A program made the translations under genes and the position numbers. The notes beneath the pieces are model-generated. The model made no database searches. It was given only the letters and a program-made list of their open reading frames with translations, and was not told where the DNA came from. A stretch of 33,502 nucleotides of DNA from Elusimicrobiota bacterium (GTDB lineage Bacteria > Elusimicrobiota > Elusimicrobia > UBA1565), in NCBI GenBank assembly GCA_043827405.1, contig JBDRPD010000015.1:1-33502 (forward strand), in the 5' to 3' direction. Positions 13,414 to 33,502 of this stretch are shown here, one piece after another. Numbering within the stretch: the stretch's first letter is position 1; each line of letters opens with the position of its first letter.

Positions 13414-14500
13414 ATGAGAGACCGTTTACGAAGCATGCGTTTCGATGATAAGCGTCTGCGGCCTCGACGCCGGAACGGTCCTGGTCTTCGCGGGGCTCTT
13501 CAACGTCTTGACAGGGATCGCGTTCAATCAGCCCCTCCCGGTTCAGCCGATGAAGGCCATCGCGGCCGTGGCGATCGCTGAGCATCTCGCGCCCGGAGAG
13601 ATCGCCGCCGCGGGCTTCGTGTCGGGCGCTGTCGTTCTGGTCCTCGGACTCAGCGGCCTGGTATGCTGGGCGGAGAGGATTATCCCCCGTCCGGTGGTGC
13701 GCGGCATCCAGTTAGGCGTGGGGCTCAAGCTCGCGGCAAAGGGAATCGGGATGGTCCTTGGACTTGACTGGCTGAGTCTCGATGGCCGTCTTGTCGCTGT
13801 AGTCGCGGGGGGGATAGTCCTGGCAACGAGCCAACGGAAGAGATTTCCCGCCGCCCTCGTCATCTTCGTCGCCGGGCTGGCGATTTTTCTCGTTGGCCGG
13901 GCGGAGGTTCTTCAGGGACTGTCTTGGGGGTGGGCTGGGCCGCGGCTGGTTCTCCCTAATTGGGCTCAATGGCAGACCGGGATCCTCCAGGGGGCCTTGC
14001 CCCAAGTGCCGTTGACGCTGCTGAACTCGGTAATCGCGGTTTGCGCACTGAGTTCCGATCTCTATCCCGGCAAGGGCATCGGAACGCGTCCCATGGCGGT
14101 GAGCGTCGGGCTTATGAACGTCGGTGCCTGCCTTTTCGGAGCGATGCCTGCCTGCCATGGCTCGGGCGGTCTTGCCGGCCAGCATCGCTTTGGCGCGCGT
14201 ACGGGCGGCAGCGTGGTCATGCTGGGAATTGGGAAAATCCTCATCGGAGCGGTCTTTGGCGGCGCCGCGATGATCGTTCTCGCAGCCTATCCTGCTTCCA
14301 TCCTGGGGATACTCCTCGTGTTCGCGGGACTCGAACTCACTTTGCCGGCCAGGGATTGTGTCGAACGCGAAGCATTCTTCGTCGCGGCCGCGACCGCCGG
14401 CGGGATTCTCGCTTTCAACACCTGGCTCGGCTTCATCCTGGGACTATTTGCCGCCGTCTTTATCCTTCGAGGCGGTAAGGATTCTGCCGACTCTAAGTAG
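13414..14500 (+). pseudogene. MOT1-family sulfate/molybdate transporter with probable N-terminal deletion and frameshift (main ORF 13445-14500)
   Basis: PVQPMKAIAAVA, SVGLMN and MPACHGSGGLAGQHRFGARTG are present. The MRFD start is out of frame and the GDLGT motif is absent. Confidence 0.65.
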
Positions 14501-18986: not shown

Positions 18987-20137
18987 GTGTTTTCCGCCAT
19001 AAAGGTCAAAGTGAACGTGCTCCCTTGTCTCGGGGCGCTCTTTATGGCGATGTCCCCGCCGTGGAGTTCTACGACTTTCTTGACGATAGCCAGACCCATT
19101 CCGGTGCCGGCCGTTTTGAGTGAAAAAAACGGATCGAAGGCCTGCTCGATCTCCGTGGGCTTCATTCCCTTGCCGTTGTCCTTGAAACGGATGCGTACAA
19201 GGCGCACTCCCTGGCGAATCACGACCTCTGATTTCAGATACAGCGTTCCGTTTTCGGCCATGGCATCCATGGCGTTTTCGATGAGGTTCCGGAATACCGA
19301 GGCCATCCGGCGGGAATCGAGGCGGCAGGGCTTGATGTCCGCATAGTCCTTGTGAACCCGGATTTTATTGGCGGAGAGTGACGCGCGCAGATCACGGAGG
19401 GCCCCGTCGAGTAGGGTGTTAACGCCGGCTCGCGTGACGTGCAGCCGGACGGGTCGCGAGAAATCCCGAAGATCGGAGAACAGGTTGTTGAGCTCACTGA
19501 TTCCATCCTGAAGGGAACGGATGATCATTTGGGAGTTCTTGCCCCGGGGCCGCATCTCCATTAAGAGAAGCGCCACAGAGGACCGGAGTTTCTGTAGGGG
19601 ATTCTTGAACTCGTGGACGACCGATACGATCATTTCGCCCAGTCGCGCCAGGTCTTGGGTATGGGAGAGTTCGTGCTCGATCTGCTTTTTCTCCGTGATG
19701 TCGATGCCGATATAGAGGTATCCGGCGGGTTCGTTCCGGTCGTGCACCGGCACGATCGTCAACTGCAGGATGCTGCTGCTTCCGTCCTTGGCTTTGCGCA
19801 GGATCTCTCCGCGCCACGCGCCATGTTTCTCGACGGCTTGATAATGCAGCAAGCGGTCCTTTTCGAAGGAAGGATCGGCGGCCAACACATCTATCGACCG
19901 GCCCACGATCTCCCGCTCCGAGTATCCGAAGAGCCTGGAAAAAGCGGGGTTCGCTTCGACGATCTTCCCGTCCAGGTCGGTGACCATCATGGCCTCGGTA
20001 AAGTGCTTGAACATGTCCCACAGAAGCTGGATGTTGCCTCGAGGTATGCGCTCCGGCTCCTTGCCGATAAGGATCGCATCTTTATCCGGCCTTTTCGGAA
20101 CGGTCGTGTTTTTGTTTTGAGTTTTAGCCGGCCGCAT
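18983..20137 (-). CDS. Cytoplasmic PAS-domain sensor histidine kinase
   Basis: PAS (ANPAFSRLFGYS, WRGE, KDGS), H-box HEFKNPL, N-box NLIENAMDA, DNGKGM, FDPFF, GTGMGL. No TM segment. Confidence 0.93.
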   Translation of the reverse strand: MRPAKTQNKNTTVPKRPDKDAILIGKEPERIPRGNIQLLWDMFKHFTEAMMVTDLDGKIVEANPAFSRLFGYSEREIVGRSIDVLAADPSFEKDRLLHYQAVEKHGAWRGEILRKAKDGSSSILQLTIVPVHDRNEPAGYLYIGIDITEKKQIEHELSHTQDLARLGEMIVSVVHEFKNPLQKLRSSVALLLMEMRPRGKNSQMIIRSLQDGISELNNLFSDLRDFSRPVRLHVTRAGVNTLLDGALRDLRASLSANKIRVHKDYADIKPCRLDSRRMASVFRNLIENAMDAMAENGTLYLKSEVVIRQGVRLVRIRFKDNGKGMKPTEIEQAFDPFFSLKTAGTGMGLAIVKKVVELHGGDIAIKSAPRQGSTFTLTFMAENT

Positions 20138-20140
20138 AGA

Positions 20141-20650
20141 TCAAATTCGATTCATAGTTTCGTCGAGGTATGCCTCGTCTTCTTTCTCTTTGAGTAGGAG
20201 ATTTCCCCAAACCAAGGACCGGTGGATCCAGCCCGTGACCGCATCATCGCCTCCTTCATCGTAGACTTCGATCCATCGCCCCTTCACGGAGCGGACTTGG
20301 AAGGTAACGCCTCGGTCCACCTCCCAAACGATATCAAAACGTGCGCTCGGGCCGCTACGGATGTTCGCGGCCTTGGCTATGACAACGACGGACGGATAGT
20401 CCGACAGCAGACTCGAATAAATCCATCCGGTGTAACCCTCGAAGTCGCGCACTTCGGTCCACGGACCGCTGTGCCGGAGAGACTGCAGCGGTTCGTGCTT
20501 CCAGATATACCAGAGCACTTCATACTGGGTCCCGGGACCGGAGCGGACGTTGGCCTTTTTCGCGGAGACACTGAACATCCCCGCGTTCGCCAAAGCCGGC
20601 GCCAGCGCTAGAAAAAACGACAGAATCCCGGCTATTCGGCTCCGCTTCAT
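20141..20650 (-). CDS. Secreted protein with two bacterial SH3 domains
   Basis: Signal peptide, then ANVRSGPGT..W..V.D..G.TGWI twice. ATG 20650 follows GAGGGG. Confidence 0.85.
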   Translation of the reverse strand: MKRSRIAGILSFFLALAPALANAGMFSVSAKKANVRSGPGTQYEVLWYIWKHEPLQSLRHSGPWTEVRDFEGYTGWIYSSLLSDYPSVVVIAKAANIRSGPSARFDIVWEVDRGVTFQVRSVKGRWIEVYDEGGDDAVTGWIHRSLVWGNLLLKEKEDEAYLDETMNRI

Positions 20651-20671
20651 GTTCCCCTCGCATCCTCCAAT

Positions 20672-20772
20672 AAAAAACCCCGCGCTCCATGAGCGTGGGG
20701 CTGTCTTAGCCTTTGGCACGCCGACCGTGGGCATGCTCTATACAAGGGTAGCCCGATTAGAAAATTTGTCAA
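20672..20772 (-). promoter_or_regulatory. Promoter plus ANTAR-type twin-hairpin antitermination leader (SH3-kinase-regulator operon)
   Basis: TTGACA (20767-20772), 16 nt, TACCCT. P1 20716-20736, P2 20699-20711. The P2 3' arm overlaps the terminator AGCCCCACGCTC-ATG-GAGCGCGGGGTTTTTT (20672-20702). Confidence 0.72.
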
Positions 20773-20856
20773 TACCCTGCCGGTTTAATCAGTCTCCGGG
20801 TCGTCTGCAGATTCCCCGACGGTAAACTCCGGCAAGTCGGCGGGATGCTAGGGCAG

Positions 20857-20885
20857 TTGTTTTTATATGACGGGCGGGCTATAAT
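20857..20885 (+). promoter_or_regulatory. Sigma-70 promoter for rsgA
   Basis: TTGTTT-17-TATAAT. Confidence 0.6.
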
Positions 20886-20921
20886 AGTTCTGTTGTCAAT
20901 TCTGGACCCTGGAGGCTGATT

Positions 20922-20975
20922 ATGGTGATTGTATTGAACGTGGAATCGCCGTCGGCCTGCGGGGATCTCTCCTAG
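20922..20975 (+). CDS. Putative leader peptide MVIVLNVESPSACGDLS upstream of rsgA
   Basis: GGAGG RBS at 20911, followed by hairpins and a terminator-like stem before rsgA. Confidence 0.5.
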   Translation: MVIVLNVESPSACGDLS

Positions 20976-21058
20976 CGATTTGTCTCCTCACCTCCCGCAT
21001 GGGCCCGCGCGTGCTCTTTCTGGGGCGCGCTTTTGAAATTGTGTTTATGAGGGCTAAC

Positions 21059-22129
21059 ATGTCATCGCAGCTGAAGAAGTACGGTTGGAACAAGCACTGG
21101 GAAGCTCAATTCAAAGGCCATCGAGAAGCAGGCTTCTCTCCGGGGAGGATCATCGGCCAGGAACGGGAACTATTCCTTGTCGCGACGACGAAGGGCGAAA
21201 GGGGGGGAGTGCTCGCGGGTAAGATGCGTTACCAGGAAGACGTACGCCCCGCCGTCGGTGATTGGGCGGCGTTTTCCGGAGAGGGCGACGACGGTCCCGT
21301 CCGCATAGAGGCGGTGCTGGAACGCCGAAGCCGGCTCGCCAGAAAGGAGGCCGGCTTGAAGGTGCGCAAGCAGGTAGTCGCGGCCAATATCGACGTTGTG
21401 TTCCTCGTCTCCTCGCTCGACGCGGATTTCAACCTCCGGCGCCTCGAGCGTTACCTGACGGCTGTCTGGGAAAGCGGAGCTCGGCCCGTTCTTGTTCTCT
21501 CGAAGCTCGACGCGGCGGCTGACCCTGAGGGGATGCGTCTGGCTGCGCAGACCTGCGCCTCCGGCGTTCCCGTCATATCCCTAAGCGCGAAATCCGGCGC
21601 AGGGATGGACGCTCTTGGCGCCCACATGGCTCCCGGCGAGACGGCGGCCCTGGTAGGCTCTTCCGGGGTCGGAAAGTCCACCTTAATCAACCGGATGCTG
21701 GGGCGTGAGGTTCAGGCCGTTGGGGCAGTGCGCGAGGACGACTCCAAGGGCCGGCACGTGACCTCGTCACGGAAAATCTTCCTGCTCCCGTCCGGAGCGA
21801 TGCTGGTGGATACTCCCGGAATGCGAGAGCTCCAGTTGTGGGACGATGAGGGAGAGGGGATGGTGCGGACCTTCGAGGATATCGAGGATCTTCTGACCCG
21901 ATGCCGCTTCGGCGACTGCCGCCACGATACTGAGCCCGGCTGCGCCCTGACCGAGGCTTTCGCCTCCGGCGAGATCTCCGAGGAGCGCTATCAGAGCTGG
22001 CGCAAGCTCAAGCGCGAGTTGGAATTCCTGCGCAGGAAGAAGGACAAGGCGGAAGGCGCGAACGCAAAGAAACGCTGGAAGAAGATTTTCAGCGCTGCCG
22101 CCGCCCGGAAAAAAATCGAGGGACTCTGA
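21059..22129 (+). CDS. rsgA: Ribosome small subunit-dependent GTPase A
   Basis: PAVGDW, QVVAANID, RRLERYL, SKLD, GSSGVGKSTLIN, KGRHVT, DTPGMRE, CRFGDCRHDTEPGCA Zn finger. Confidence 0.95.
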   Translation: MSSQLKKYGWNKHWEAQFKGHREAGFSPGRIIGQERELFLVATTKGERGGVLAGKMRYQEDVRPAVGDWAAFSGEGDDGPVRIEAVLERRSRLARKEAGLKVRKQVVAANIDVVFLVSSLDADFNLRRLERYLTAVWESGARPVLVLSKLDAAADPEGMRLAAQTCASGVPVISLSAKSGAGMDALGAHMAPGETAALVGSSGVGKSTLINRMLGREVQAVGAVREDDSKGRHVTSSRKIFLLPSGAMLVDTPGMRELQLWDDEGEGMVRTFEDIEDLLTRCRFGDCRHDTEPGCALTEAFASGEISEERYQSWRKLKRELEFLRRKKDKAEGANAKKRWKKIFSAAAARKKIEGL

Positions 22130-22198
22130 GCGTTCCAAGCCGGCGTTCTATTCGTTCCGCGGGGATCAACGCTTTCACAAAGGCCTCTACAGGTTAAT

Positions 22199-22278
22199 AT
22201 GAGTGTGGAGGCATTCTTCGCTACCTTAGAAAGCGCCGCGGCCTGACTTTGATGGAACTGGCCCGGCGAACTGACGTC
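22199..22278 (+). pseudogene. XRE-family HTH N-terminal fragment, frameshifted
   Basis: ATG AGT GT then GGILRYLRKRRGLTLMELARRTDV in another frame. Confidence 0.55.
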
Positions 22279-23322
22279 CTCAAGACCAGCTTCTACGATC
22301 TAGAGCAGCCGCAGGTCCTTGCGGAGTTTAACCGTTCCGATTAAGAGATTGTCGCCAGAATCAAGAGCTCCGGCGATGTCGTTTTTATCGACGAGTTCCA
22401 ATATCTGCGCAACGCTTCAAAAATTCTTAAAGCAGTCTATGACTCGTCGTCAAAAGTGAAGGTCTTCTCCTCCGGTTCATCGTCCATCGAGATACACAAG
22501 CATTTGAAGGAGAGCTTGGCGGGCCGCCGCCTCCTGTTTCGAATTCATCCGCTTCAGTATTCCGAGTTAAAAACCAAGCTTTCCATGCCCCTGACCCGCT
22601 ATCTATGTTACGGCGGGATGCCCGGCCTAACCCATACGGACTCCGCCGAGAGAAAGCGCTTGATCCTGTCGGAACTCCTGAGCGCCTATATCCTCAAGGA
22701 TGTGAAATCTCTTTTAAAGGAAGAGAACATCCGGGCTTTCAATCACCTTCTCTGCCTATTGGCTCAAAACCAGGGGTCCGTAGTCTCGGTCCATGCAATA
22801 GCCCAAGAAATCCAGATGAGCTCAAAGGCCGTCAACCGCTATCTGGAAATCCTCGAACAGACGTTCGTTAATTTCAGGGTGCATAGTTTTTCCAGAAACT
22901 TAGGAAACGAACTAAAAAAATCTTCGAAATACTACATGTATGATTCTGGCATTCGCAACGCGATCCTCAAGGACTTTTCGGCTCTGGGGGAGCGTACGGA
23001 CAAGGGCGCCATCTTGGAAGGATTCGTCTTTTTGCGGCTTCACACTCTGCTGGCCCCGAACGTGGAAATCAGGTTTTGGAGGACAAAGGACGGCGACGAG
23101 ATGGATTTCGTCCTGCTTAAGGATCGCAAACCCCTCCCGATCGAGGTAAAAAGCTCTCTTTCAAATCCTAAAGTCTCAAGGGGGCTAAGGCGTTTTCTCT
23201 TGCGCTATCCCGAGACCGCCAACGCCATCGTTGTCAACGAGCGGCATGACGCTACAGTGGCTTGTGGGAAATGCGCTGTAAGATTTTTGACGTTTGAAGC
23301 GTTTTCTTCTTTTACCCTTTAG
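22279..23322 (+). pseudogene. AAA+ ATPase with DUF4143 / nuclease-like C-terminus, 5'-truncated with internal stop
   Basis: Walker B VFIDEFQ, SGSSS, YGGMP, KYYMYDSGIRN, FWRTKDGDEMDFV, PIEVK. In-frame TAA at 22342-22344, Walker A missing. Confidence 0.85.
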
Positions 23323-23444
23323 AGAGGCGCTTTTCCGCACAAGCGGGAGAGGCGGCGGCGATCCTGCCCAAAGATCCTGGATTACATCGGGGTTCCAAAT
23401 GCGCCGCAATTTATTTTTATATATTGAGAAGTTGGAAAATGAAG

Positions 23445-23520
23445 AAACCGCCCCGGAAAATTCGAGGCGGCTCTTACATTTTTAAAATTTCTCCCCCGGT
23501 TGGACAAACTTCGAACTTGG
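23445..23520 (-). repeat. att-like site A: tRNA-Asn-like 3' fragment plus terminator
   Basis: Minus strand GTCCAACCGGGGGAG (23491-23505), then hairpin AGCCGCCTCG...CGGGGCGGTTT. Confidence 0.6.
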
Positions 23521-23787
23521 ATACGGGATGCGATGGCGGTTCAGCAAGGAATTGCTGAGCTGGAATCGATGAAATTTCCCTTCAGTTGATCCGGAAGCAT
23601 AGTTGGGAGCACCGAAGCGGCCTAACCTCACCTAGGTAACCTTACCCCCGGAGTCGAAATCCCGCGACTCAGTCGGGAAACCGTAAGGCATCATGGGCGC
23701 CATCTGGTTCGTCACATGAGCATCGCGATGGCGTTTATAGCGAAGAATAGGAGGAAGCTTTGCTGTGGCAGCTCGCATATCGTCAGC

Positions 23788-24435
23788 TTAAGCGCGTCGC
23801 CTAGGACTCAAGAGTCCAGCCACACCCTTCTTGATCGCCATGACATAGACAAAATCCTGTGTTCCCCCGGACGGTTTTCGGTGTTTCTCGTTTAGACGGC
23901 GACACACCCTATATCCAGTCCCCAGTTCCCGGCCGAGAGCAGCCGCGCTGTAACGTCGCACGGGCAGGCCGCTGCAGCGCGCCGGACCCGTGGGCGCGAA
24001 CGTAGACATAACCACTGCGCCGCCCGGCTTCAGGCAGCGCTTCAGGTTGCTCAGGTAGCGTCTTCGGTCTGCGGCGCGCGTCAAAAAATGAAAAACGGCC
24101 CGGTCATGCCAGAGGTCGACCTTTAAGTCGAGGCGTTCGCTCGCCAGATCGGCACGTAAGAATTTTACGCCTGCCCCGGAACGTCCCAGCCGCTTCTTCG
24201 TCTCGCGCAAGGCTGCGGCGGAAAGGTCCACTAGGACCAACCGCTTTCCGCCCGCTTTCAAGAGGTGGTCAGCCAGGTTTGAAGCGCCGGCTCCAGCGTC
24301 GAGGATGCACGCATTCTGAGGAAGACGCGCCGCCCGAATCAGAGCCAGCGATTTTGCCGGCCGCCCTTGCGTCCAACTGCGTTCCCCAGGCTGGCGCGTC
24401 CTGTAAATTCCGTCCCAATAGGATTTTGCTCTCAT
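23788..24435 (-). CDS. Class I SAM-dependent methyltransferase
   Basis: YWDGIY...SWTQ, ILDAGAGAS, VDLS, WHDRAVFHFL, GPARCSGL. ATG 24435 overlaps the permease stop (ATGA). Confidence 0.88.
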   Translation of the reverse strand: MRAKSYWDGIYRTRQPGERSWTQGRPAKSLALIRAARLPQNACILDAGAGASNLADHLLKAGGKRLVLVDLSAAALRETKKRLGRSGAGVKFLRADLASERLDLKVDLWHDRAVFHFLTRAADRRRYLSNLKRCLKPGGAVVMSTFAPTGPARCSGLPVRRYSAAALGRELGTGYRVCRRLNEKHRKPSGGTQDFVYVMAIKKGVAGLLSPRRRA

Positions 24436-25718
24436 TTTTTCCATTGAAGGGATGCCATGCCATGCCATGCCATCCCGACGGCCAGCGTCGCGAGTCCCGC
24501 TATCCAAATGGCGGGTTCGACCCAGAATGCGAGGAACGCACAGCCCGCGAGCCCGGCTCCGGCGATCCATCGCGGATACCTTTGGGATTCTTCAGGAAGA
24601 CGCAGGGCGGCGAGGTTGGTAATCGCATAGTAGACGAGGACGGTGAAGGCGCTGAATGACCATGTCGTCTTGACGCTTCCGATCGCGACGAGCCCGACGA
24701 TCATGAGTGCGGTCGTTATCACGGCTGGGACGGGCGTGCCGCCGTCTTTCGAAACGCGGGAGAAAATCTTCGGCATATCGCCCCGCCGTCCCATCGCAAG
24801 CAATACCCTGGATAGTCCCAGGTTTAGATTGAGCAGAACACCGAGCATTGCCGTCACGGCTCCAACCGCTAGTAGGAGGGGGATTCCCGGAAGGTCTAGG
24901 TTGCGGGCGATTTCCTCGAGTGGAGCTCCCGTCGTTTGCGTGAGTTCGCCGTATCGATGGGCTCCCACCGATGCGATCGCGATGAAAGCGACGGCCGCGT
25001 AAAGGATGACGGTGACCGTCAACGTGGACAGAACCGCCCGGGGAATGGTGCGACCAGGTTCGACGACCTCCTCTCCAAGCGTCGCAATCCTGCCGTAACC
25101 CGTATAGGCGACGAAGAGGAGGGCGGTCGCATGGAGGAACGAGCGCGGGTCGGGGGGTGTCGAAAGTGCCGAGGTCAATTCTGCGATTCCGGTCTCCGGC
25201 AAAGCGAAGAACCCCATGAGTACGAATGCCGAAAGCGAAACGAGCGTGAGACCGACGATCGCCGCGTTCGCCTTATTGGATCGCCGCATTCCGGTGAGTA
25301 GCAGGATCATGACGGAGATCGTCAAGCCCGCTGCCAAGGGGCTCAGGCCTTTTTGAGATTCGGCGCCAACCAGCGCGAGGATATATCCCGCTCCTCCCAG
25401 AGCGGCGGTCGCCGCCGAAGCCGACTTGGCGCACAGGAACATCCAGCCGGCGGCGAACCCGGCGGCAGGATGCAGGTATTGGTAGCCGTATTCGTAAGAA
25501 CCACCACTGGTCGGGTGGCTGGCGGCGAGTTGCGCGCTTGAAAGCCCGTTGAAGAGGGCGATCAGCGCGGCGAGCGCGAGCGCGGGCAGCGCCCATGCTC
25601 CGACGATCCCGGCCGCGAGACCGATGCTGACGAACACGCCCGTTCCGATGATCGAACCCAGGCCCAAAAGGACTGCTCCCGGAAGTCCTATGACTCGCTT
25701 AAGGCCGGCAGAATCCAT
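24432..25718 (-). CDS. APC-family amino acid permease
   Basis: LGLGSIIGTGVF, PTSGGSYEY, FVAYTGYGRIATLGEEV.EPGRTIPRA, about 12 TM segments. Confidence 0.9.
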   Translation of the reverse strand: MDSAGLKRVIGLPGAVLLGLGSIIGTGVFVSIGLAAGIVGAWALPALALAALIALFNGLSSAQLAASHPTSGGSYEYGYQYLHPAAGFAAGWMFLCAKSASAATAALGGAGYILALVGAESQKGLSPLAAGLTISVMILLLTGMRRSNKANAAIVGLTLVSLSAFVLMGFFALPETGIAELTSALSTPPDPRSFLHATALLFVAYTGYGRIATLGEEVVEPGRTIPRAVLSTLTVTVILYAAVAFIAIASVGAHRYGELTQTTGAPLEEIARNLDLPGIPLLLAVGAVTAMLGVLLNLNLGLSRVLLAMGRRGDMPKIFSRVSKDGGTPVPAVITTALMIVGLVAIGSVKTTWSFSAFTVLVYYAITNLAALRLPEESQRYPRWIAGAGLAGCAFLAFWVEPAIWIAGLATLAVGMAWHGMASLQWKK

Positions 25719-26017
25719 TAGTGAACTAACTCCTTGAAGAGTTCCGTGATCTTCTCGCGGGATTTCCGCAGCACTCGCTTTCCGCGGGCCGTCGCGCGGT
25801 AGATCTTCCGCACGCGCCCGTTTCTCTCCTCAGGGTTCGATCGGAGGTAGCCGCTGCGTTCCATCGAATGCAGCAGAGGATAGATCGTCCCGGGGCTAAG
25901 GTGATAGCCGTGCCGGGACAACTCCTCGATGATCCCGAAACCGAAAACCGTCTCGTGGGCGGCGTGATGGAGGATGTGAAGCTTGACGAGTCCTAAGAAG
26001 AAGTCCTGGTCTTTCAT
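25718..26017 (-). CDS. PadR-family transcriptional regulator
   Basis: LHILHHA...GIIEEL.RHGY.LSPGTIYPLLHSME..GYL...RKIYRAT.RG. Confidence 0.92.
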   Translation of the reverse strand: MKDQDFFLGLVKLHILHHAAHETVFGFGIIEELSRHGYHLSPGTIYPLLHSMERSGYLRSNPEERNGRVRKIYRATARGKRVLRKSREKITELFKELVH

Positions 26018-26076
26018 ATAACGAAAACCGATATCGTGATTCGTTATATAATATATGATGCGCCTAATATTGTCAA
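26016..26076 (-). promoter_or_regulatory. PadR operon promoter and palindromic operator
   Basis: TTGACA (26071-26076), 17 nt, TATTAT. Symmetric ATATAACGAA...CGATATCG...TTCGTTATAT at 26016-26049. Confidence 0.75.
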
Positions 26077-26087
26077 GTTAAGACGAT

Positions 26088-26176
26088 AAAAAGCCGCCCC
26101 GACAAACGTCGAGGCGGCTTCGTGATATTTAGTGTTATTTAAAGCAACTCCCCCAGTAGGACCAAAAGGGTAACTC
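26088..26176 (-). repeat. att-like site B: tRNA-Asn-like 3' fragment plus terminator
   Basis: Minus strand GTCCTACTGGGGGAG (26148-26162), then AAGCCGCCTCGAC-GTTT-GTCGGGGCGGCTTTTT. Confidence 0.65.
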
Positions 26177-26646
26177 TTAAAAGCACTGTAAATATAGACT
26201 ATTTTTTCCCGCCTGACCTTTCCTTAGCGCCTTTGGGCGAGCGAATCCGCTATTTGAGGCGCCGATTGAGGATAAACTACGCCGCAGCGGCGGCGGGCGC
26301 CGGCGTCAGCCCGAACACCTTGCTGCGCCTGGAACGCGGCGAAGGTCGGCCGCAGGATTGGACCATCAGCAGGCTTCTCCGCTACCTTGGGCGCGCGCTC
26401 AAGGAGGTCTTTCCGGGGGCCGAAGATGTGTACGACCTCATCATCCCGCCCAAGGACTTCGGCAGCTGGCTGCGCAATCTTCGATTGAGACGCGGCCTGC
26501 AGCAAAAGGAGCTTGCCGAAATCCTAGGACTTAGTAAGGTAAGCGTGTGCAGGTATGAGAAGAATATTGTCAAGCCGCAGGAAGCCATACTAAAACGACT
26601 CAGGAGGAGGTTTAGCCTTAATGGAGAATTCGAGCGCTACATATAG
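26149..26646 (+). CDS. Tandem double XRE-HTH protein, copy 1 (no convincing start codon)
   Basis: LGERIRYLRRR...GVSPNTLLRLERGE and FGSWLRNLRLRRGLQQKELAEILG...RYEKN. Homology to copy 2 starts at 26149; in-frame TAA at 26140; first usable start is TTG 26233 without an RBS. Confidence 0.75.
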   Translation, partial: SPSRTKRVTLKSTVNIDYFFPPDLSLAPLGERIRYLRRRLRINYAAAAAGAGVSPNTLLRLERGEGRPQDWTISRLLRYLGRALKEVFPGAEDVYDLIIPPKDFGSWLRNLRLRRGLQQKELAEILGLSKVSVCRYEKNIVKPQEAILKRLRRRFSLNGEFERYI

Positions 26647-26789
26647 TCCGGTCCCTCACGACCGGCAGCTAAGAAGAGACTGGTGGCCGCTTGCGCGGCG
26701 ACTGATCGTGGCGTCCGTTCTCGCGTCACAAGCCTATTGGGTCTTCGGGTGGCGGGTTCCTCTCGCGGATCTGCTGACGTTGGGGGGGA
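26621..26789 (+). pseudogene. Truncated copy of the membrane-protein gene at 29746-30168
   Basis: Near-identical translation up to ADLLTLGG, where similarity stops. Confidence 0.7.
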
Positions 26790-26825
26790 CCTCATCTCCA
26801 TGGAGGTCTGTTGCGTACAGAATCG

Positions 26826-27659
26826 TCATTCGCGGTGCTTGTAGCCCTTCTTGAAAGCGGCCAATAGCGCCAAGCCCTCTTTGCGCTTCTGCTCATCCAC
26901 GACATCGAGAACGCCTGCCGCTAAGATGTCTAGAAAGGGCGAATAGAGGTCCTTGGATTCACTTAGGAACCGAGCCACGCACTCTGCGGCCGCCTCGGAT
27001 GCCAGCGCCCCGACCTCCATGCCGAGCAGTACAGCTCCGGCGGTCGCATAGTCTTCATGCTCGATGCCCGGCTTGTTTGCTAGGTCGTAGCGCCGGTCGT
27101 CTTCGGTGCCGCCGACATAGTTTTGGAGCCAGTAGTCGATATCCTTGGCGTCGTCCTTATGTTTCTCTTTGCCCTGGGCTTTCCGATCCAGGAAGGCGAT
27201 GATCTTCAAAAGCACGAATCCCGGCACAGTGATCACCGAGACAGAGGGGCCGTCCTCTAGTTTGACCTTGCTCGCCGCGGCGCAGACCTCATCGAACCCT
27301 ACTACCGACATCTCGAATTCCGACTTCGGCCAGACCAAGGTCCCGCCCGGCGCAATCTCAGCACCATAAGGGATCAAATCCACCATCGCGGTCCTGCGAT
27401 GCAGCCGATGCTCAATGCTCCGATCGGGTTCGAACTTGCAATCAGGCCCGAGCAGCTTCTCGCGGAGCTTCTCATAGGTCGGCCAGTCGCGCACGCGCAC
27501 TCCAAAATCGGCATCGTTGGTCCTGCGGAATTGTGGGTAATCGGAACCTTTTTCGGGTGTGAGCTCCGTCATCAACGCGCCGACCAAAACGACTTCAACT
27601 CCCAGCCCTTCGGCGGCTCGGCAAACGTCCCTGACGACTTCCGTAAGTCCACTATCCAT
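26826..27659 (-). CDS. Nucleotidyltransferase, AbiEii-like type IV toxin
   Basis: VLVGA...RRTNDADFGV, VDLIPYG, GFVLLKIIAFLDR, KDDAKDI. Confidence 0.82.
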   Translation of the reverse strand: MDSGLTEVVRDVCRAAEGLGVEVVLVGALMTELTPEKGSDYPQFRRTNDADFGVRVRDWPTYEKLREKLLGPDCKFEPDRSIEHRLHRRTAMVDLIPYGAEIAPGGTLVWPKSEFEMSVVGFDEVCAAASKVKLEDGPSVSVITVPGFVLLKIIAFLDRKAQGKEKHKDDAKDIDYWLQNYVGGTEDDRRYDLANKPGIEHEDYATAGAVLLGMEVGALASEAAAECVARFLSESKDLYSPFLDILAAGVLDVVDEQKRKEGLALLAAFKKGYKHRE

Positions 27660-28707
27660 TGGTGACCTTGGGTTCTATGAAGCGTTCGTAGATCATCTGA
27701 GCCGTCTCAGCTTCGCGCGCGCCGCCGGCCTCTAGAAGCTCCGCGTAGATCAGAAGCGGCGTCGCCAGAGGCCATGGCCCCTGGGTTTCATCCCCCACGG
27801 CTGCCGTTCCGAACAGACGCAGCAAAGTGACATTTCCGCCTGCTTCATCGCGGAGCATGGGCTCCTGCTTGAGGGCTTCTCTTGCCCGATCATTCACGAA
27901 GAGCGTGATTGCATCCGGCTCAAGATAATGAGTCAGCTCACGAGCGGCCATCCCGCCGGTGATCGCCCAGCGGCCTTCTCCCATGTTGGCAAAACGAAGG
28001 GCGAAGTCATCCACGATTTCCTCGGGTTTGCGCGCCTTGTGCCGGTAGCGTCCCAGGAGGCATGTCGGACGCAGCTTTAGCGCATACCCCCGCACGAAGA
28101 GCTCGATCAGTGCCTTGATATCCCCGAATCGGCGCTTGCCTTTGGCCGCAGGCAAGATCCACTGCCGCCGCTTGAGTTCCCGCATGACCGCATGTACGGT
28201 CGCTAGGCCGACACCGGCTTGTTCAGCGATCGTCCGCAAGGGATCGCCCACTGCGGGCGGATGGGTCAGCAGGTAGTGGACGACCTTCAAGCCTCCAGGC
28301 TGGATCAGCCTACCGGGCTCAGTCTTGAGCGGACGATCAGGCTTCTTCCCGCGGATATCCACGACCACATGCGGAGGCTTTCGGATGAAGATGTTTCCCT
28401 GCGCGTCAACGAAGAATACCCCGGCTTTACGGAACTCCTCTGCGACCGGCTCTGGAATCCAATCCGCGAAAAGCACGGCCTCGCCCGCCAGGGGTCTCAT
28501 ATGGAGGATGATGTGGCCTGCCTGGTTTCTAGTTGTGGGCTGGGCTTTGGCCTCGCCAGTCAAATTTAGGGGTGGCCTTGTGCCGATGTGGAGGAAGAAA
28601 TCATGGGGCCCCCTGTTGATTTGGTCCAGATCTACGGGCAGATCGGGGCCTAGGGCATCCCGGAGGTGTCCAAGGCAAGCCTGGATGAATGGGGTCATGT
28701 TCCGCAT
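27652..28707 (-). CDS. AbiEi-family type IV antitoxin / winged-helix regulator
   Basis: FVDAQGNIFI, HTH LRTIAEQAGVGLATVH, WAITGG.AA..LT.YL.P, ATPLLIYAELL, ARE.ETA. Overlaps the toxin start. Confidence 0.82.
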   Translation of the reverse strand: MRNMTPFIQACLGHLRDALGPDLPVDLDQINRGPHDFFLHIGTRPPLNLTGEAKAQPTTRNQAGHIILHMRPLAGEAVLFADWIPEPVAEEFRKAGVFFVDAQGNIFIRKPPHVVVDIRGKKPDRPLKTEPGRLIQPGGLKVVHYLLTHPPAVGDPLRTIAEQAGVGLATVHAVMRELKRRQWILPAAKGKRRFGDIKALIELFVRGYALKLRPTCLLGRYRHKARKPEEIVDDFALRFANMGEGRWAITGGMAARELTHYLEPDAITLFVNDRAREALKQEPMLRDEAGGNVTLLRLFGTAAVGDETQGPWPLATPLLIYAELLEAGGAREAETAQMIYERFIEPKVTNG

Positions 28708-28762
28708 ATCGCCTCTGTTCCGTTATATGGAACAGTATAAATTACGGAACATATTTTGTCAA
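28697..28762 (-). promoter_or_regulatory. TA promoter with four nested TGTTCC operator boxes
   Basis: TTGACA (28757-28762), 17 nt, TATACT (28734-28739). Boxes at 28698, 28716, 28728 and 28745. Confidence 0.8.
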
Positions 28763-28857
28763 TAGCAAATATTCTATTAGTAAAAACAAGCAAAATCGCA
28801 AGTCCAGCCGGCTGCGCCTTGCTTTCTTGGTAAACCCACGCTAGAGTCATGGAGTAA

Positions 28858-28975
28858 GTGGCTTCATATCTCGAACGCTTCACTGAGCATCTTGCCCGGC
28901 AGCGCCGGTACTTCCTTCGTAGCATCGAGACCTATGGCTACGCGGTCAAAGCGTATCTGGCCTCTCTCGCCTCCA
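28858..28975 (+). pseudogene. XerC/XerD-like tyrosine recombinase N-terminal fragment
   Basis: YLERFTEHLARQRRY..RSIETYGYAVKAYL matches the integrase N-terminal SAM-like pattern. No catalytic domain follows. Confidence 0.55.
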
Positions 28976-29105
28976 GGGCCAGCCCCGCTTCTTCCATCTC
29001 TCCAACAATTCTCGTTGCTTTCACAGGTACGTCCTCCTCCGCCCTACTCACTAATTCCGGAACCTAAATCTGTCTCATCTTATCTTGGCAAAAAGGGAGG
29101 CGGCG

Positions 29106-29771
29106 ATGCGGCTTGAGGCCGCTGAGAACCGTAGAGAGGAAAACCATGCAAAAAAGTTCAGTGCCCTACCTGCAGGGGCAAGTAAGACCAAAAGGGTAAC
29201 TGGACAAAAAAGTCATAAAAAATCGGCCCTTCCCAATTCAGGGAAGGGCCGAAGTTACCCTATCCAAAGATTCTCCCCAGGTAGGACGAAAAGGGGAACA
29301 CTGAAAACCGTCGTAAATATCGACGGAATCCTTCCACCAGACCTGCGCACGGCCTCGCTGGGCGAGAAAATCCGCTATGTCCGGCGCCGTTTGGGGCTCT
29401 CATGTAAGGAACTCGCACGCCGCGCCGGGATCGGAAACAACACCCTGACGCGGCTTGAGAGGGGGGAGGGTAAGGCGATCGACGCGGTGGTCGGCCGCGT
29501 CCTCCGGGCGCTCGGACCCGCCCTGGCCGAGGCATTTCCCGGGACTCAGGACATCTTCGACCTGCTTTTTCCATCCACGAGCTTCGGAGATTGGCTGCGC
29601 AACTTTCGGCTGCGCCGAGGCCTCCAGCAGAGGGAACTTGCCGAAATTCTAGGACTTAATAAGGTAAGCGTGTGCAGGTATGAGAAGAATATTGTCAAGC
29701 CGCAGGAAGCCATACTAAAACGACTCAGGAGGAAATTCAATCTCAATGGGGAATTCGAGCGCTACTTATAG
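29106..29771 (+). CDS. Tandem double XRE-HTH protein, copy 2, with N-terminal leader crossing att-like sites C and D
   Basis: AAGGGAGG RBS 5 nt before ATG 29106. Two HTH domains; paralogous to 26149-26646. Confidence 0.78.
   Translation: MRLEAAENRREENHAKKFSALPAGASKTKRVTGQKSHKKSALPNSGKGRSYPIQRFSPGRTKRGTLKTVVNIDGILPPDLRTASLGEKIRYVRRRLGLSCKELARRAGIGNNTLTRLERGEGKAIDAVVGRVLRALGPALAEAFPGTQDIFDLLFPSTSFGDWLRNFRLRRGLQQRELAEILGLNKVSVCRYEKNIVKPQEAILKRLRRKFNLNGEFERYL
29173..29201 (-). repeat. att-like site C
   Basis: AGTAAGACCAAAAGGGTAACT (29181-29201) matches site B 26155-26175 at 20 of 21 positions; the left half differs. Confidence 0.6.
29216..29302 (-). repeat. att-like site D: tRNA-Asn-like 3' fragment plus terminator
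   Basis: Minus strand GTCCTACCTGGGGAG (29273-29287), then a perfect 12-bp hairpin (29223-29252) and T run. Confidence 0.65.
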
Positions 29772-30168
29772 CACAGTCCCACACGACCAACAGCTGAGAA
29801 GAGACTGGTGGCCGCTTACACGGCTGCTGATCGTGGCGTCCGTTCTCGCGTCACAAGCCTACTGGGCCTTTGGGTGGCGGGTTCCTCTCGCGGATCTGCC
29901 GGCGCTGGGGGGGAGAATCTTGACGGCTATGTTCGGTATGGCGCTTATATCCGGCGCGCTGGTTTATCTCTGCGCTCTGCTTCTCATGTTGTTGCTGTTG
30001 GCCTTCATATTGATGAACGGCTACAGCTACGACGCCTGCTACTGGACGTTCCGAAACATTTTCAGGCTTCGATCCCACCGTCTTCGCGCAGGCTTCTCGC
30101 TCGCGGGAGAACTCGCTCTCTTTGTCTACGGTTTCTTCTTGCTACGCTGCCTTCTCGCCGTGTTATAA
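29746..30168 (+). CDS. Small hypothetical membrane protein (3-4 TM)
   Basis: Hydrophobic ORF overlapping the end of the HTH gene; its N-terminus is conserved in copy 1. Confidence 0.65.
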   Translation: MGNSSATYSTVPHDQQLRRDWWPLTRLLIVASVLASQAYWAFGWRVPLADLPALGGRILTAMFGMALISGALVYLCALLLMLLLLAFILMNGYSYDACYWTFRNIFRLRSHRLRAGFSLAGELALFVYGFFLLRCLLAVL

Positions 30169-30311
30169 CTCCGTTCCAATCATGGACTGCCCATGTCGGA
30201 TGCGCATACAACCAGACCTCTCTCAGACTCAATACTTAGGCAGAAAGCCGTACGCTTTTGTGGGGGAACGTCACGAGGAGGACGGCTAGCAGGAAGACCA
30301 CATTCATGGCC

Positions 30312-30671
30312 CTATTCATTAGAATGGCCAGGACAATCTTGTATGTGCATTGATATGTCGGTATACATCTCGTCACATCTGGGACAGCGCTGAGGCCTCA
30401 AGGGCAGATGCCTCGGGTTCCTCGGGCGGTGCGGGGCGCTCTCATGGACAAGTCTGAGCGCATCTTCCAAAAGCATCTTCCGCTTCACAGGTTCCGGTTT
30501 AGGAGTCCCGCATTTTTCACAAGGATATTCGGCCGCTATAGTATTCGCATACGCTTTGTTAACGCCGCCTGGAGGCAACTCCAGTCCATGCTTCTTTATG
30601 AGGCAGTTGATGTAAGTCTCATGTCGACATTTCGCGCAAACAAAAAAGAAGGCTGGTATTTCTTTGGACAT
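30312..30671 (-). CDS. Hypothetical Zn-binding protein (CxxC x3)
   Basis: CAKC, CEKC, CPRC...H...C. Confidence 0.6.
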   Translation of the reverse strand: MSKEIPAFFFVCAKCRHETYINCLIKKHGLELPPGGVNKAYANTIAAEYPCEKCGTPKPEPVKRKMLLEDALRLVHESAPHRPRNPRHLPLRPQRCPRCDEMYTDISMHIQDCPGHSNE

Positions 30672-30808
30672 GGTTAAACGTCGCGAGTTGTTGACGGGCG
30701 CATACGGGGAGTTTACTGCTCGGCGGGGAGGAGGGCAAGGGGGGAAATCCCCCCTCGTAGGTGCTATTGCTAAACGGGTTTTCTGAGCTTATATTATGTA
30801 CAGATCCC

Positions 30809-31062
30809 ATGTCGAAATCCATTCTTCTGGTTTGTAAGAATTGTGGCTACGAGAAATCGCTCAATAGTGTGCGTCAGCGCATCGCAGACGCTTGGCGAAT
30901 TTCTCTCACTGCCGTTGAGGGCAGGGTGCGCCGGAATTCAGGGAAATTGAGATGCTCATCATGCGGCCAAAAGGGCGGAGTTCGGCTAAAGAGCCTCGGT
31001 TCTCCTGATCCAGAAAAAAAGAAATCAAAGGAATACCACGGCCCTACGACTATCCAGGGTTT
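30809..31062 (+). pseudogene. Hypothetical Zn-ribbon protein interrupted by the IS3 element
   Basis: MSKSILLVCKNC...CSSCG; the frame runs into the IS end at 31063. Confidence 0.55.
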
Positions 31063-31088
31063 TGTTGAGGCTAAGGAAGTGTTGCGGG

Positions 31089-32099
31089 TCAAGCGTTTTG
31101 GGACTTTTCTCCGTCATTTGATCTTTGCGACTCGAGCCGCCGAGCTCGGTTATATTCCTTCCGTCTTTGAAGCGTCTGCCGCTTAATCTCGGCTCTCCGC
31201 TTCAATATCTCATCCATCCGCCCCGCGTAGACATCATCAGGGCAGACGTTCTTCAACTTCTCACGCGGCGTCTTATTGTGCGCTTCCACTGCTGCCGCGA
31301 CCGCCTCCCTCAACTCCTCCGGCGAGCAGTAGACCAGGAGCCGCACTCGCCCCTTGATCTTCTTGTTCACCGCCTCCACCTTTCCCTGCGTCTGAGGATG
31401 GTAAGGACGCCCGAAGATGTGCCGGATGCCGTGCAGCCCTAGATATTGCCGCAACTGCGACCCCGTGAAGCCAGGGCCGTTGTCCGAAAGCAGCAACGGC
31501 TTCTCTTTGAGCTCATGGCCGGCTGCTCGGGCCGCCTCCATCGCCTCTTCCACCGCGTCGGCGATCGACAGCGAGGATTCGTCCGGCATGACCGGCATCG
31601 CCAGAATCTTACGCGAGTAGTCGTCGACGACCGGGATGGCTTTGTAATAACCCCAACCGGCGACGAACATGTTGGTCCCGTCGCACTGCCAGATCTGGTC
31701 GGGAGCTGTCGTCTTGTGCTGCCATTCCTTCTTCGCAGGCAGGTCTGCGAGCGCGCGAGGCTCGATGAGGCCGCGGGCCTTCAGCATCCGAAACAGCGTC
31801 GATTCCGATACCGCGATCTTGTCCTCGTCGAGGAGCTTCGTCGAAAGCAGTCTCGGGCTCAATTCGGGGTGAGCCTTCGCTACTTCCAATGAGCGCTTCT
31901 CTTCTTCGGGAAGAAGCTTCATCCAGGAATCCGGCGGACCGCCTTTCCGTTCAAGGCCTTTGATCCCGCCCTTCTCGTAGTTCTTCCGCCAGCGATAGAA
32001 GGTTGAGCGAGGGATCTTCGTGGCCACGAGCCGTTTTTCGCGTCCGCGTCCTCCAGATTCTACCGCTTCTACGAGCCCCGCGCGCTCCACAGCCTTCAT
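31089..32099 (-). CDS. IS3-family transposase OrfB (DDE integrase core)
   Basis: WQCD, VVDDYSR, LLSDNG, PYHPQTQGKVE. Confidence 0.9.
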   Translation of the reverse strand: MKAVERAGLVEAVESGGRGREKRLVATKIPRSTFYRWRKNYEKGGIKGLERKGGPPDSWMKLLPEEEKRSLEVAKAHPELSPRLLSTKLLDEDKIAVSESTLFRMLKARGLIEPRALADLPAKKEWQHKTTAPDQIWQCDGTNMFVAGWGYYKAIPVVDDYSRKILAMPVMPDESSLSIADAVEEAMEAARAAGHELKEKPLLLSDNGPGFTGSQLRQYLGLHGIRHIFGRPYHPQTQGKVEAVNKKIKGRVRLLVYCSPEELREAVAAAVEAHNKTPREKLKNVCPDDVYAGRMDEILKRRAEIKRQTLQRRKEYNRARRLESQRSNDGEKSQNA

Positions 32100-32497
32100 C
32101 CTTCGGTGCCAGCCTCGCCCGATACGCTCAGACTTTTTTTAAAAAGCGCCAGTTGGAGCGCGTGCTCTGCCAGGAGTTCCTTGAGCTGGCTATTCTCGCG
32201 CTTCAGGCTCTTCACCTCGGCCGCGTTAGCCTGACGCAGACTATCGCCCTTAAGCCGCGCCTTGCCGGCCTCCATGAAGTCCTTGAGCCAACTGTAATAA
32301 AGCGCCGACGAGATGCCTTCCCGGCGACAGAGGTCTGCGATCGAGACCTCTCGCTTCATCCCTTCGATGATGATCCGAATCTTTTCTTCAGCCTGAAACT
32401 TCTTCCTCGTCCGACGCCGCACACGCTTCAGGAAATGATCCGCGGTGGGCGCTACAGCCTTATCTCCATTTCCAGCTACCTGAACTGCTGTTTCCAT
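32096..32497 (-). CDS. IS3-family transposase OrfA (HTH)
   Basis: RKKFQAEEKIRII...IADLCRREGIS..LYYSW.KDFMEAGK. A7 slippery run at 32134-32140, with the -1 frame open into orfB. Confidence 0.9.
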   Translation of the reverse strand: METAVQVAGNGDKAVAPTADHFLKRVRRRTRKKFQAEEKIRIIIEGMKREVSIADLCRREGISSALYYSWLKDFMEAGKARLKGDSLRQANAAEVKSLKRENSQLKELLAEHALQLALFKKSLSVSGEAGTEG

Positions 32498-32585
32498 GAC
32501 TGCCTCCGTGTCTATTTTACCGCCTCAGACACGGCTTGATTCGCAAAGATTTAAACGGCACGAACTGTCCCACAGAGTATAAACC

Positions 32586-32822
32586 TCAACAATAGATTCG
32601 AATTGAAGTTTTAACATCGTTTCGCTGAAGCCACTTTTCAAAAGTTAATGTCTCTCCCGTGTTTTCCCGCGCAGTATTAACGTCCCATGCTGCATAGCCA
32701 TTAATTGTCTTTTTACTCCTTAGATTAACCTGGACCCCGCGAAGTTCCCAACATCCCGAGGTCGTAGGCAATGCCAGAGATAAGACCAGTGCGCCTAAAA
32801 TGGTTGGTAATTTACTGGTCAT
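32586..32822 (-). pseudogene. Integron cassette ORF (signal peptide), truncated by IS3
   Basis: GAGGAG RBS just after the attC R' box, low GC; the final TGT TGA comes from the IS end. Confidence 0.6.
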
Positions 32823-32866
32823 CAACTCCTCATTATTTCTGTAATCAGATTGTTTTGATCAAGTGC

Positions 32867-32942
32867 GTCTAACGGATTACGCTAAGCCGCCGCTACCCAG
32901 CGGCGGGACCTAACAAGCGGGCGGCTTAAGCGCTTGTTAGGC
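32867..32942 (-). other. Integron attC recombination site (76 bp)
   Basis: Minus strand R'' GCCTAAC, L'' arm CTTAAGC with an extra base against L' GCTTAG, R' GTTAGAC. Starts 10 nt after the upstream stop codon. Confidence 0.85.
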
Positions 32943-32952
32943 GCTTTTCATC

Positions 32953-33381
32953 TCACTGTACGTGTTTTCCACTCTTCTGTTGAGAAGTAAGACCCTTTGT
33001 CTTCAGCTCTCCGAGTGCTTTATTCAAAATCCATAGTGCGCAAATTGCCGCTACGGTAAATAACGGGATGGAATATATTCCGGCAAAATAAACGATCTCA
33101 AATGCCCAGTCGGGGAAGGGGGCGATACCAATCAAAAACCATCCGAAAACGCCACTAATAAAGACTTCCCCGCAAGCCACTTGATATACAAGATTATTCC
33201 TCCCTCGAACCAATTGCCACAACTGAAAGGCTACCAGTATTAAGAAACCACCCCAAATAGCAGATACTCCGACAAAGATGCAGGCATAAAGCACCGTTCC
33301 GTATTGGCTAACAGAATTGGCAACTGAGAGGATGTGTGTAAGTCCCTGTGCTAGCACTATGAGTGTCAATATGCAAAGCAC
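32953..33381 (-). CDS. Integron cassette membrane protein (about 4 TM), start uncertain
   Basis: Low-GC hydrophobic ORF ending just before the attC. Confidence 0.65.
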   Translation of the reverse strand: MLCILTLIVLAQGLTHILSVANSVSQYGTVLYACIFVGVSAIWGGFLILVAFQLWQLVRGRNNLVYQVACGEVFISGVFGWFLIGIAPFPDWAFEIVYFAGIYSIPLFTVAAICALWILNKALGELKTKGLTSQQKSGKHVQ

Positions 33382-33418
33382 CCAAGAGGCGGCGTCCCGA
33401 TAGCTGGAGAAATTTAAA

Positions 33419-33488
33419 AAGCGTAACCTCTGGTTGATGAAATCAACTTAGGCCAGTTAGAGCTGGCCGACACCGAGAGGTTACGCTT
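33419..33488. other. Branched inverted-repeat element (three-way junction), possible atypical attC
   Basis: Perfect 13-bp stem AAGCGTAACCTCT/AGAGGTTACGCTT enclosing two hairpins. Confidence 0.5.
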
Positions 33489-33502
33489 AATGAATGGTAC
33501 CA

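Follow-up and report, generated by a model that had tools for sequence, protein, structure and literature searches.

How does a bacterial genome come to hold, one behind another, gene units that are bounded by tRNA-like sites and lack an integrase? The question is raised by a 33,502-nt stretch of an Elusimicrobiota bacterium (GenBank assembly GCA_043827405.1, contig JBDRPD010000015.1), here called the window, which is the entire contig C15 of assembly G000 (4.33 Mb, 98% complete). An initial annotation, made from the letters alone, had described four related sites in it (A to D) and regarded them as hybrid attachment (att) sites from repeated tandem integration at a tRNA-Asn locus. We analyzed these sites, the DNA adjoining them, and their counterparts in related genomes. 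The locus is probably the outermost part of a series of elements stacked at the 3' end of tRNA-Asn by large serine recombinases (LSRs), with units that have lost their integrases and a split integrase gene.

All four sites are present at the positions first reported (Table 1). The spacer pattern proposed as common to them has exactly three matches in the 4.33-Mb genome, which are A, B, and D; site C lies outside it. In its N7 form the pattern matches the window twice (B and D; 0.02 expected), and A has the N8 spacing. The segment lengths were also as described (A to B, 2,657 nt; B to D, 3,125 nt; C to D, 99 nt), as was the minus-strand preference of the hairpins at A (−18.6 versus −14.4 kcal/mol) and B (−26.7 versus −21.6 kcal/mol), while the hairpin at D is symmetric between strands. 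Sites A, B, and D consist of an element arm, a GA core, a short arm, and a terminator and are therefore, judged by sequence, attR-type junctions of LSR elements that integrate at the 3' end of tRNA-Asn. The reading as hybrid sites of tandem integration is supported. Site A belongs to another LSR family than B, C, and D (its outer motif is similar to that of a second, more distant one), and the core of C differs. Site C has 20 of 21 nt in common with B. Our best guess is that it is a putative second LSR-binding site with a nonmatching core, a decoy or scar that marks no unit boundary. Three other readings, a remnant of an attL in inverted orientation, a decoy of attP, and one member of a cassette-exchange pair, were also considered, and none of them was favored.

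At the LSR loci of this class, the element arm occupies the 24 nt behind tRNA positions 71 to 72, and the tRNA's own arm is 19 nt long. In LSR attachment sites generally, the arm motif of attB lies about 5 bp nearer the core than that of attP. The offset between short and element arms fits this rule (19 versus 24 nt at the tRNA), with a short arm of 20 nt at D and 19 nt at C and none visible at A or B. The arms are imperfect inverted repeats around a 2-bp core, 24 nt on both sides, and a natural 24+2+24 junction occurs in the relative G182; they also resemble the tRNA T-arm, displaced by some 5 nt. Of 49 junctions or tRNAs, 7 have a second arm behind them. The same was true of 22 of 600 windows taken as background, among which are loci with real sites. 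A matrix built from seven LSR-gene arms ranked B, D, and C as the top three places within the window. In eight other genomes, the B/D arm pattern hit five apparent real sites and three apparent chance matches in coding sequence. Viral contigs gave three arm matches, with element genes absent beside them, and one weak match to the helix-turn-helix (HTH) frame discussed below. The layout of D and C recurs in the relative G049 directly behind an intact tRNA-Asn and an intact tRNA-His. An Rfam scan of positions 20000 to 33502 returned nothing approaching a gathering score.

An intact tRNA-Asn and a recombinase gene had been predicted to the right of the window. A tRNA-Asn with a recombinase gene next to it does exist in the assembly, on contig C84; a junction of C84 to the window contig was not demonstrable. 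ARAGORN without introns missed tRNA-Asn genome-wide, and a tRNA search of the window found none. With introns allowed, tRNA-Asn was located at C84 35154 to 35749, split by a group I intron. The intron of this locus (L073) contains an HNH-like open frame, and intron-bearing tRNA-Asn genes also occur at L100 and L101. The 3' end of an LSR gene (547 amino acids) overlaps the tRNA on the opposite strand, and its arm has the same motif as the window sites, so that the matching attL reads tRNA, GA, and then a 24-nt arm inside the 3' end of the LSR gene. The C84 module continues with an excisionase-like HTH_17 gene and two genes that no library named, the last of which we take to be relaxase-like; related elements have long gene sets that we judged by eye only to be conjugation genes. 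Among NCBIfam models, CcrB matches the C84 LSR best, with a score of 185 where the cutoff is 900. Related sites target tRNA-Asn, tRNA-His, and tRNA-fMet.

The genome has two LSRs of the same clade, on C84 and C59, only the former at tRNA-Asn. The arms of B and D, together with their reading frame, fit the LSR subtype of loci L081 and L082 (17/24) better than either of these. The C59 gene (L074; 268 to 2971) reads into a 13-nt piece that matches the end of tRNA-fMet, and it adjoins the same membrane-protein gene as the HTH-bearing elements, without an HTH; the actual tRNA-fMet, on C39, appears unoccupied.

Rightward of B and of D, stretches of 650 nt are 74% identical to each other and contain a tandem Xre-HTH frame followed by the membrane-protein gene. 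Although the HTH had initially been counted as cargo, an integrase gene whose end was cut off is its more likely origin. Sufficient upstream DNA was available for 45 distinct HTH copies, both of those in the window among them, and 34 of these have the arm upstream, compared with 13 of 2,000 random places. The cores at these 34 copies were GA (13), AC (10), CA (7), and others (4), and GA, AC, and CA equal the ends of tRNA-Asn, tRNA-His, and tRNA-fMet/-Gln, respectively. In 23 copies the core lies 92 nt from the HTH. The linker between them contains an ATG in only 3 of the 34 copies and a stop in 2. In 26 selected copies of the 92-nt class, it had proportions of synonymous and nonsynonymous differences (pS and pN) of 0.53 and 0.27 and no stops, whereas the other frames had stops in 9 and 13 copies. 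The HTH frames of B and D differ from each other with a pN/pS of 0.38. Five of the seven close LSRs cross the core in the frame of the 92-nt class, and those of L081 and L082 cross it in the frame of B and D; two frames thus occur among the LSR tails and among the HTHs alike.

Proteins in which the two parts are joined exist in metagenomes. A search for longer relatives returned seven proteins, among them P0005, a complete LSR fused to two HTH domains. P0004 and P0006 have the HTH fused to weakly recognizable LSR ends. P0012 begins with an LSR tail of the L081/P0177 type, and its 68% identity to the B frame extends over the whole site; its predicted structure is a confident two-HTH module behind a low-confidence linker. 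A fold search with this model gave no match at an E value of 0.001, its best rows being single Xre domains such as those of HipB and ClgR. A search for further fusions with P0005, at a cutoff that was too strict, returned only P0005 itself. The HTH looks like an integrase tail that is joined only at attP because it has no conserved start, because coding extends back to the core, and because it is fused to LSRs in these four proteins. We infer, with good support, that the LSR gene runs through attP and that its end, separated from it by integration, is the tandem Xre-HTH found next to attR. The proposed domain fusion, which would depend on excision, is unusual. Literature searches, read as listings, brought up no paper on an LSR-tandem-HTH fusion at attP.

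Several observations weigh against this interpretation of the locus. C15 and C84 are unjoined, and C15 ends in a collapsed IS256 repeat. The left flank, searched in 40 relatives, yielded no empty site and no close relative. The arm matrix is weak genome-wide, with 278 matches of at least 10 bits, among which B ranks third and A is missed. None of 66 LSR proteins of the close clade carries an HTH, and two close-clade LSRs cross a junction in frame and stop 13 to 14 residues later. The genome's own LSRs on C84 and C59 are out of frame with B and D, such that a join would stop before the HTH, and a frame-matched LSR was looked for in the assembly and not found. The four fusions are single sequences on metagenome contigs of 1 to 5.5 kb without DNA context; three of them join the HTH to other LSR clades, and the LSR of P0005 is 25% identical to that of C84. 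Among the HTH copies, 11 of 45 fell below the arm cutoff, and the body is interrupted by stops in 5 of 34. No joints were listed in the contigs of three sequencing runs; the runs listed as holding the sequence include one DNA run that may be the source and no RNA run. In run X1, which may be the source sample and in which contig depth is no copy number, one contig spans A and B unbroken. The larger depth step, with a contig break, lies at 29097, about 60 nt left of site C and not at D. In favor of the interpretation, another X1 contig ends at 29276, the last base common to the window and a join of D to this genome's tRNA-Asn, which is only a hint of recombination at D.

Two simpler links were considered. 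One, in which the C84 element would have D as its attR, is made less likely by the difference in frame. The other, contig C24 as the continuation of C15, was rejected; C24 more likely goes with C5, and the overlap is the end of the IS256-like element, whose left end (window 33388 to 33502) is common to C24 and C5 and breaks the assembly; C5 and C24 hold the two ends of a tRNA-Ala island. An odd tRNA-like gene on C24 (15576 to 15652; GTC anticodon, U1-A72/G73 ends), just past the attR of that island, was rejected as the target.

Next, we looked at arrays in relatives, choosing segments for a tRNA or site that shares a contig with the HTH (16 tRNA-adjacent and 3 intersite segments, in some of which the HTH is partial or the far site unrecognizable). 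No LSR was present in 18 of the 19 (15 of the 16 tRNA-adjacent ones); the exception, G025, has an LSR of a distant clade. On single contigs of G020, G050, G017, G006, and G049, tRNA-Asn stands upstream of a junction. One G050 contig runs from tRNA-Asn through an 11-kb unit, a site, and a 4-kb unit to another site, and G003 has four sites with near-identical arms on one contig, with an LSR of 83% identity at tRNA-Asn on another. The 11-kb unit of G050 (C37; L033, L075) has a host-like GC content and, by eye, a nitrite-reductase, hemerythrin, and Rrf2 cluster, a possible gene capture. A search for the Recombinase domain in five assemblies gave no match in two of them, G050 and G020, although arrays are present. 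Of 301 genomes, 7 were found to have the close LSR clade, and the HTH is present in every one of them, compared with 27 of 393 in the class; these genomes are kin and thus not independent. At 16 of 16 loci, the named records that hold the same HTH gene are Elusimicrobiota. Elsewhere, G104 has four tandem LSR genes of two families (C97; L114, L115); its junctions combine the families, and one of the two is followed by single-HTH genes.

The strongest competitor, which we nevertheless consider unlikely, is that the junctions are real and the units are immobile debris, with the HTH being either an ordinary regulator in its own right or a defunct relic that agrees with the LSR frame only by coincidence. 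The lack of a frame-matched LSR in the assembly, the existence of decayed HTH copies, and the 66 unfused close LSRs, all of full length, are what it would predict, and the constraint between the frames of B and D may stem from the parent elements. It is countered by the absence of a conserved start codon and by coding constraint that reaches the core, as well as by P0012, which shows a cognate join, and by the contig break at the base predicted for D.

Less probable still is an integron-like cassette system, in which units excise singly (by attR × attR or through the CC-core site) and are reinserted at the tRNA by an LSR in trans. The rarity of integrases in the units would suit it, as would the G003 array, the arrays in the two assemblies without a Recombinase-domain match, and the G182 unit that lies between tRNA-His and a full attP-type junction. 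Some units also open with a well-formed short arm, a terminator, and a CC-core site, as at D and C. However, the units are 1.5 to 15 kb long and have their own promoters and mixed gene directions, several retain pieces of conjugative elements (an excisionase-like gene, an LSR tail, or a tyrosine-integrase piece), site A comes from another LSR family, and second arms are as scarce as noted above. Unlike attC sites and promoterless single-gene cassettes, the sites here are LSR hybrids with terminators, and no match to the integron integrase IntI exceeded the TIGR02249 cutoff in the assembly. Recombination of one attR with another is not a standard LSR reaction. In addition, attL and attR of phiC31 do not synapse without a recombination directionality factor, according to the part of the preprint cited here (bioRxiv 10.1101/2025.05.02.651858). 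For these two reasons, movement of the units is most likely in cis, together with a helper; the integron-style mobilization in trans first suggested is unsupported, and the site types favor coexcision in cis. The view that the sites are displaced tRNA-Asn 3' fragments of tyrosine integrases crossing over in the T-loop, to which their likeness to a T-arm plus acceptor end and the tyrosine-integrase fragments in unit B-D and behind tRNA-Asn in G017 lend some color, is largely refuted and very improbable, because A, B, and D match the genome's own tRNA-Asn end at only 11 of 15 bases, whereas tRNA islands of this kind carry a displaced fragment identical to the tRNA 3' end, and because their arms match serine-integrase gene arms in the 24-nt register, with a core that varies with the targeted tRNA.

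We therefore return to the LSR-built stack. The sequences document the anatomy of the sites, the tRNA target in relatives, the loss of integrases, and the coding continuity from core to HTH, and the following history would accommodate them. Conjugative LSR elements may have integrated serially, and the units without an integrase would be what remained once the integrase modules had gone. Recombination between the attL of a helper at the tRNA and an attR farther out (D, B, or A) could then take the intervening units along, to be deposited later behind the tRNA of a new host. The circle would make an LSR-HTH-HTH protein and the integrated form the LSR alone. As for what the tail does, the suggestion we lean towards, at somewhat less than even confidence and by inference only, is that the fused protein acts, once the element has been excised, as a repressor of that element's relaxase-excisionase-integrase operon and thereby favors reintegration. 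Additional DNA binding at attP is a less likely role, and a tail without any role is slightly less likely again. In its fullest form, the proposal would describe a family of Elusimicrobiota conjugative elements in which only the circle adds a tandem Xre-HTH to the serine integrase, switching its activity or regulation. The units would be selected hitchhikers; by retaining the arm and the HTH tail they would allow a composite circle to go on producing a complete enzyme, and the CC-core site would be an orthogonal recombination channel. We put this forward as a speculation that is rather unlikely to hold in full.

The array as such fits known processes of decay and tandem accretion, by analogy with cis-mobilizable elements (CIMEs) and the Dehalococcoides ssrA islands. 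In the section of the source drawn on here, the latter include tandem LSR islands that lack an integration module, and an LSR that overlaps attL is also described (PMC3146451), as the LSR 3' end does on C84. Their target is transfer-messenger RNA with a 20-bp repeat, unlike the tRNA-Asn, -His, and -fMet targets here, and their module has six genes including a second small serine recombinase, unlike that of C84. That section describes no HTH tail at attR; its authors speculate that dsiB is possibly complete only on the circle (PMC3146451). CIMEs have lost integration and transfer genes, have kept their att sites, and are stacked by later integration and moved with a neighbor, as far as the cited part of the review goes (PMC5704250). 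The window units likewise have neither integrase nor transfer genes. A CIME has att sites at both ends; the unit ends here are both attR-type, and the linkage to C84 is unassembled. The worked example of CIMEs also involves tyrosine integrases, in the same part of that review (PMC5704250). The junctions here, by contrast, are of the serine type, their core measures 2 bp, and part of an integrase gene is retained in each unit.

Integrase genes that contain attP are known. Examples, from the excerpts used here, are phage Mx8, where integration replaces a 112-residue end by 13 residues, and the serine integrases of streptococcal rumA integrative and conjugative elements (PMC4701971, PMC6070905). 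The suicidal integrases of the Sulfolobus spindle-shaped virus (SSV) type are split by integration, with hybrids from halves of different origin, in the passages cited (PMC7253208). The present LSRs resemble the SSV type in having attP inside the integrase frame, and P0004 to P0006 are similar to its hybrids. Unlike the SSV type, a tyrosine recombinase split into two inactive halves, the serine recombinase would keep its three core domains together: the catalytic, recombinase, and zinc-ribbon domains stay at attL, unlike in the tyrosine recombinases of Mx8 and SSV, and a tandem Xre-HTH of about 165 residues is cut off. In mycobacteriophage BPs, attP lies inside the repressor gene and forms an integration-dependent immunity switch, according to the portion of the article cited (PMC4557955). 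By analogy, attP inside a gene could act here too as a switch on a DNA-binding protein. The BPs repressor gene is separate and its product active after integration, whereas the HTH would be joined to the integrase only before integration (PMC4557955, same portion). Staphylococcal cassette chromosomes (SCC/SCCmec; CcrAB/CcrC) are LSR-built tandem cassettes as well, some without a recombinase, with rlmH as the target. Unlike them, the elements here use tRNA targets, and the CcrB match lies far below its cutoff.

Finally, we annotated the units of the window (Table 1). A six-frame search with the LSR profile found no match in the window, and the only recombinase-domain piece there is the tyrosine-type fragment, which agrees with the first description of the segments as devoid of an intact integrase. 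The units have their own promoter-like sites. The partner of the AbiEi_2 antitoxin has no Pfam or NCBIfam match and a weak PADLOC match to PDC-M21B, and its AbiEii label comes from gene order. Farther out, a molybdate-transporter-like gene lies at 13445 to 14500; one that looks similar by eye is inside a unit of the G003 array (L031; 6617 to 7786). An IS3/IS481-like transposase pair occupies 31089 to 32497. Behind the gene at 32953 to 33381 there is what we take, by eye, to be an attC-like integron site (32867 to 32942), and a similar copy (87% over 75 nt) stands first in a short series of cassettes where C50 begins.

Table 1. Features of the locus, by position in the 33,502-nt window
Feature	Position	Strand	Remarks
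Decayed outer unit	22201..23322	+	HTH remnant 22201-22341 and broken AAA/DUF4143 gene; no recognizable att site adjoining
Intrinsic terminator of site A	23445..23473	−	
Site A	23471..23517	−	attR-type junction: element arm 23494-23517, core GA 23492-23493, then tRNA-downstream arm
32-codon frame from core A	23491..23589	+	Weak match to junction-crossing LSR tail P0164 (6/10, E 0.05); possible cut-off integrase tail
Unit A-B cargo	23788..26017	−	PadR regulator 25718-26017, APC amino-acid permease 24432-25718, S-adenosylmethionine (SAM) methyltransferase 23788-24570
Intrinsic terminator of site B	26090..26121	−	Resembles the terminator of site A and that behind a D-type site in relative G002
Site B	26128..26174	−	attR-type junction: element arm 26151-26174, core GA 26149-26150
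Tandem Xre-HTH frame 1	26149..26646	+	Open through the arm back to core B; putative C-terminal part of split LSR gene
Shortened membrane-protein gene copy behind HTH	26621..26789	+	
Unit B-D cargo	26826..28707	−	AbiEi_2 antitoxin 27652-28707 and partner 26826-27659
Broken SAM-like N-terminal tyrosine-integrase fragment	28849..29067	+	Integrase fragment 28861-29067
Site C	29156..29200	−	B-like element arm 29177-29200, core CC 29175-29176, short arm 19 nt
Intrinsic terminator of site D	29223..29252	−	
Site D	29254..29299	−	attR-type junction: element arm 29276-29299, core GA 29274-29275, short arm 20 nt with recombinase motif at end
Tandem Xre-HTH frame 2	29274..29771	+	Open back to core D; 68% identity to frame 1
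Membrane-protein gene behind HTH	29746..30168	+	Same position in several elements; homologue adjoins LSR on C59

The array itself is of a known kind, and the new point is the double-HTH frame beside B and D. The direction of serine integrases is usually set by a separate directionality factor. If the proposed split holds, the domain content of the integrase would be rewritten by its own reaction, which would amount to a built-in switch, and the defined sites make the idea of a circle-only DsiB directly testable. The family offers natural integrases for the ends of tRNA-Asn, tRNA-His, and tRNA-fMet. It would also explain how groundwater Elusimicrobiota gather defense and metabolic genes at their tRNA genes.

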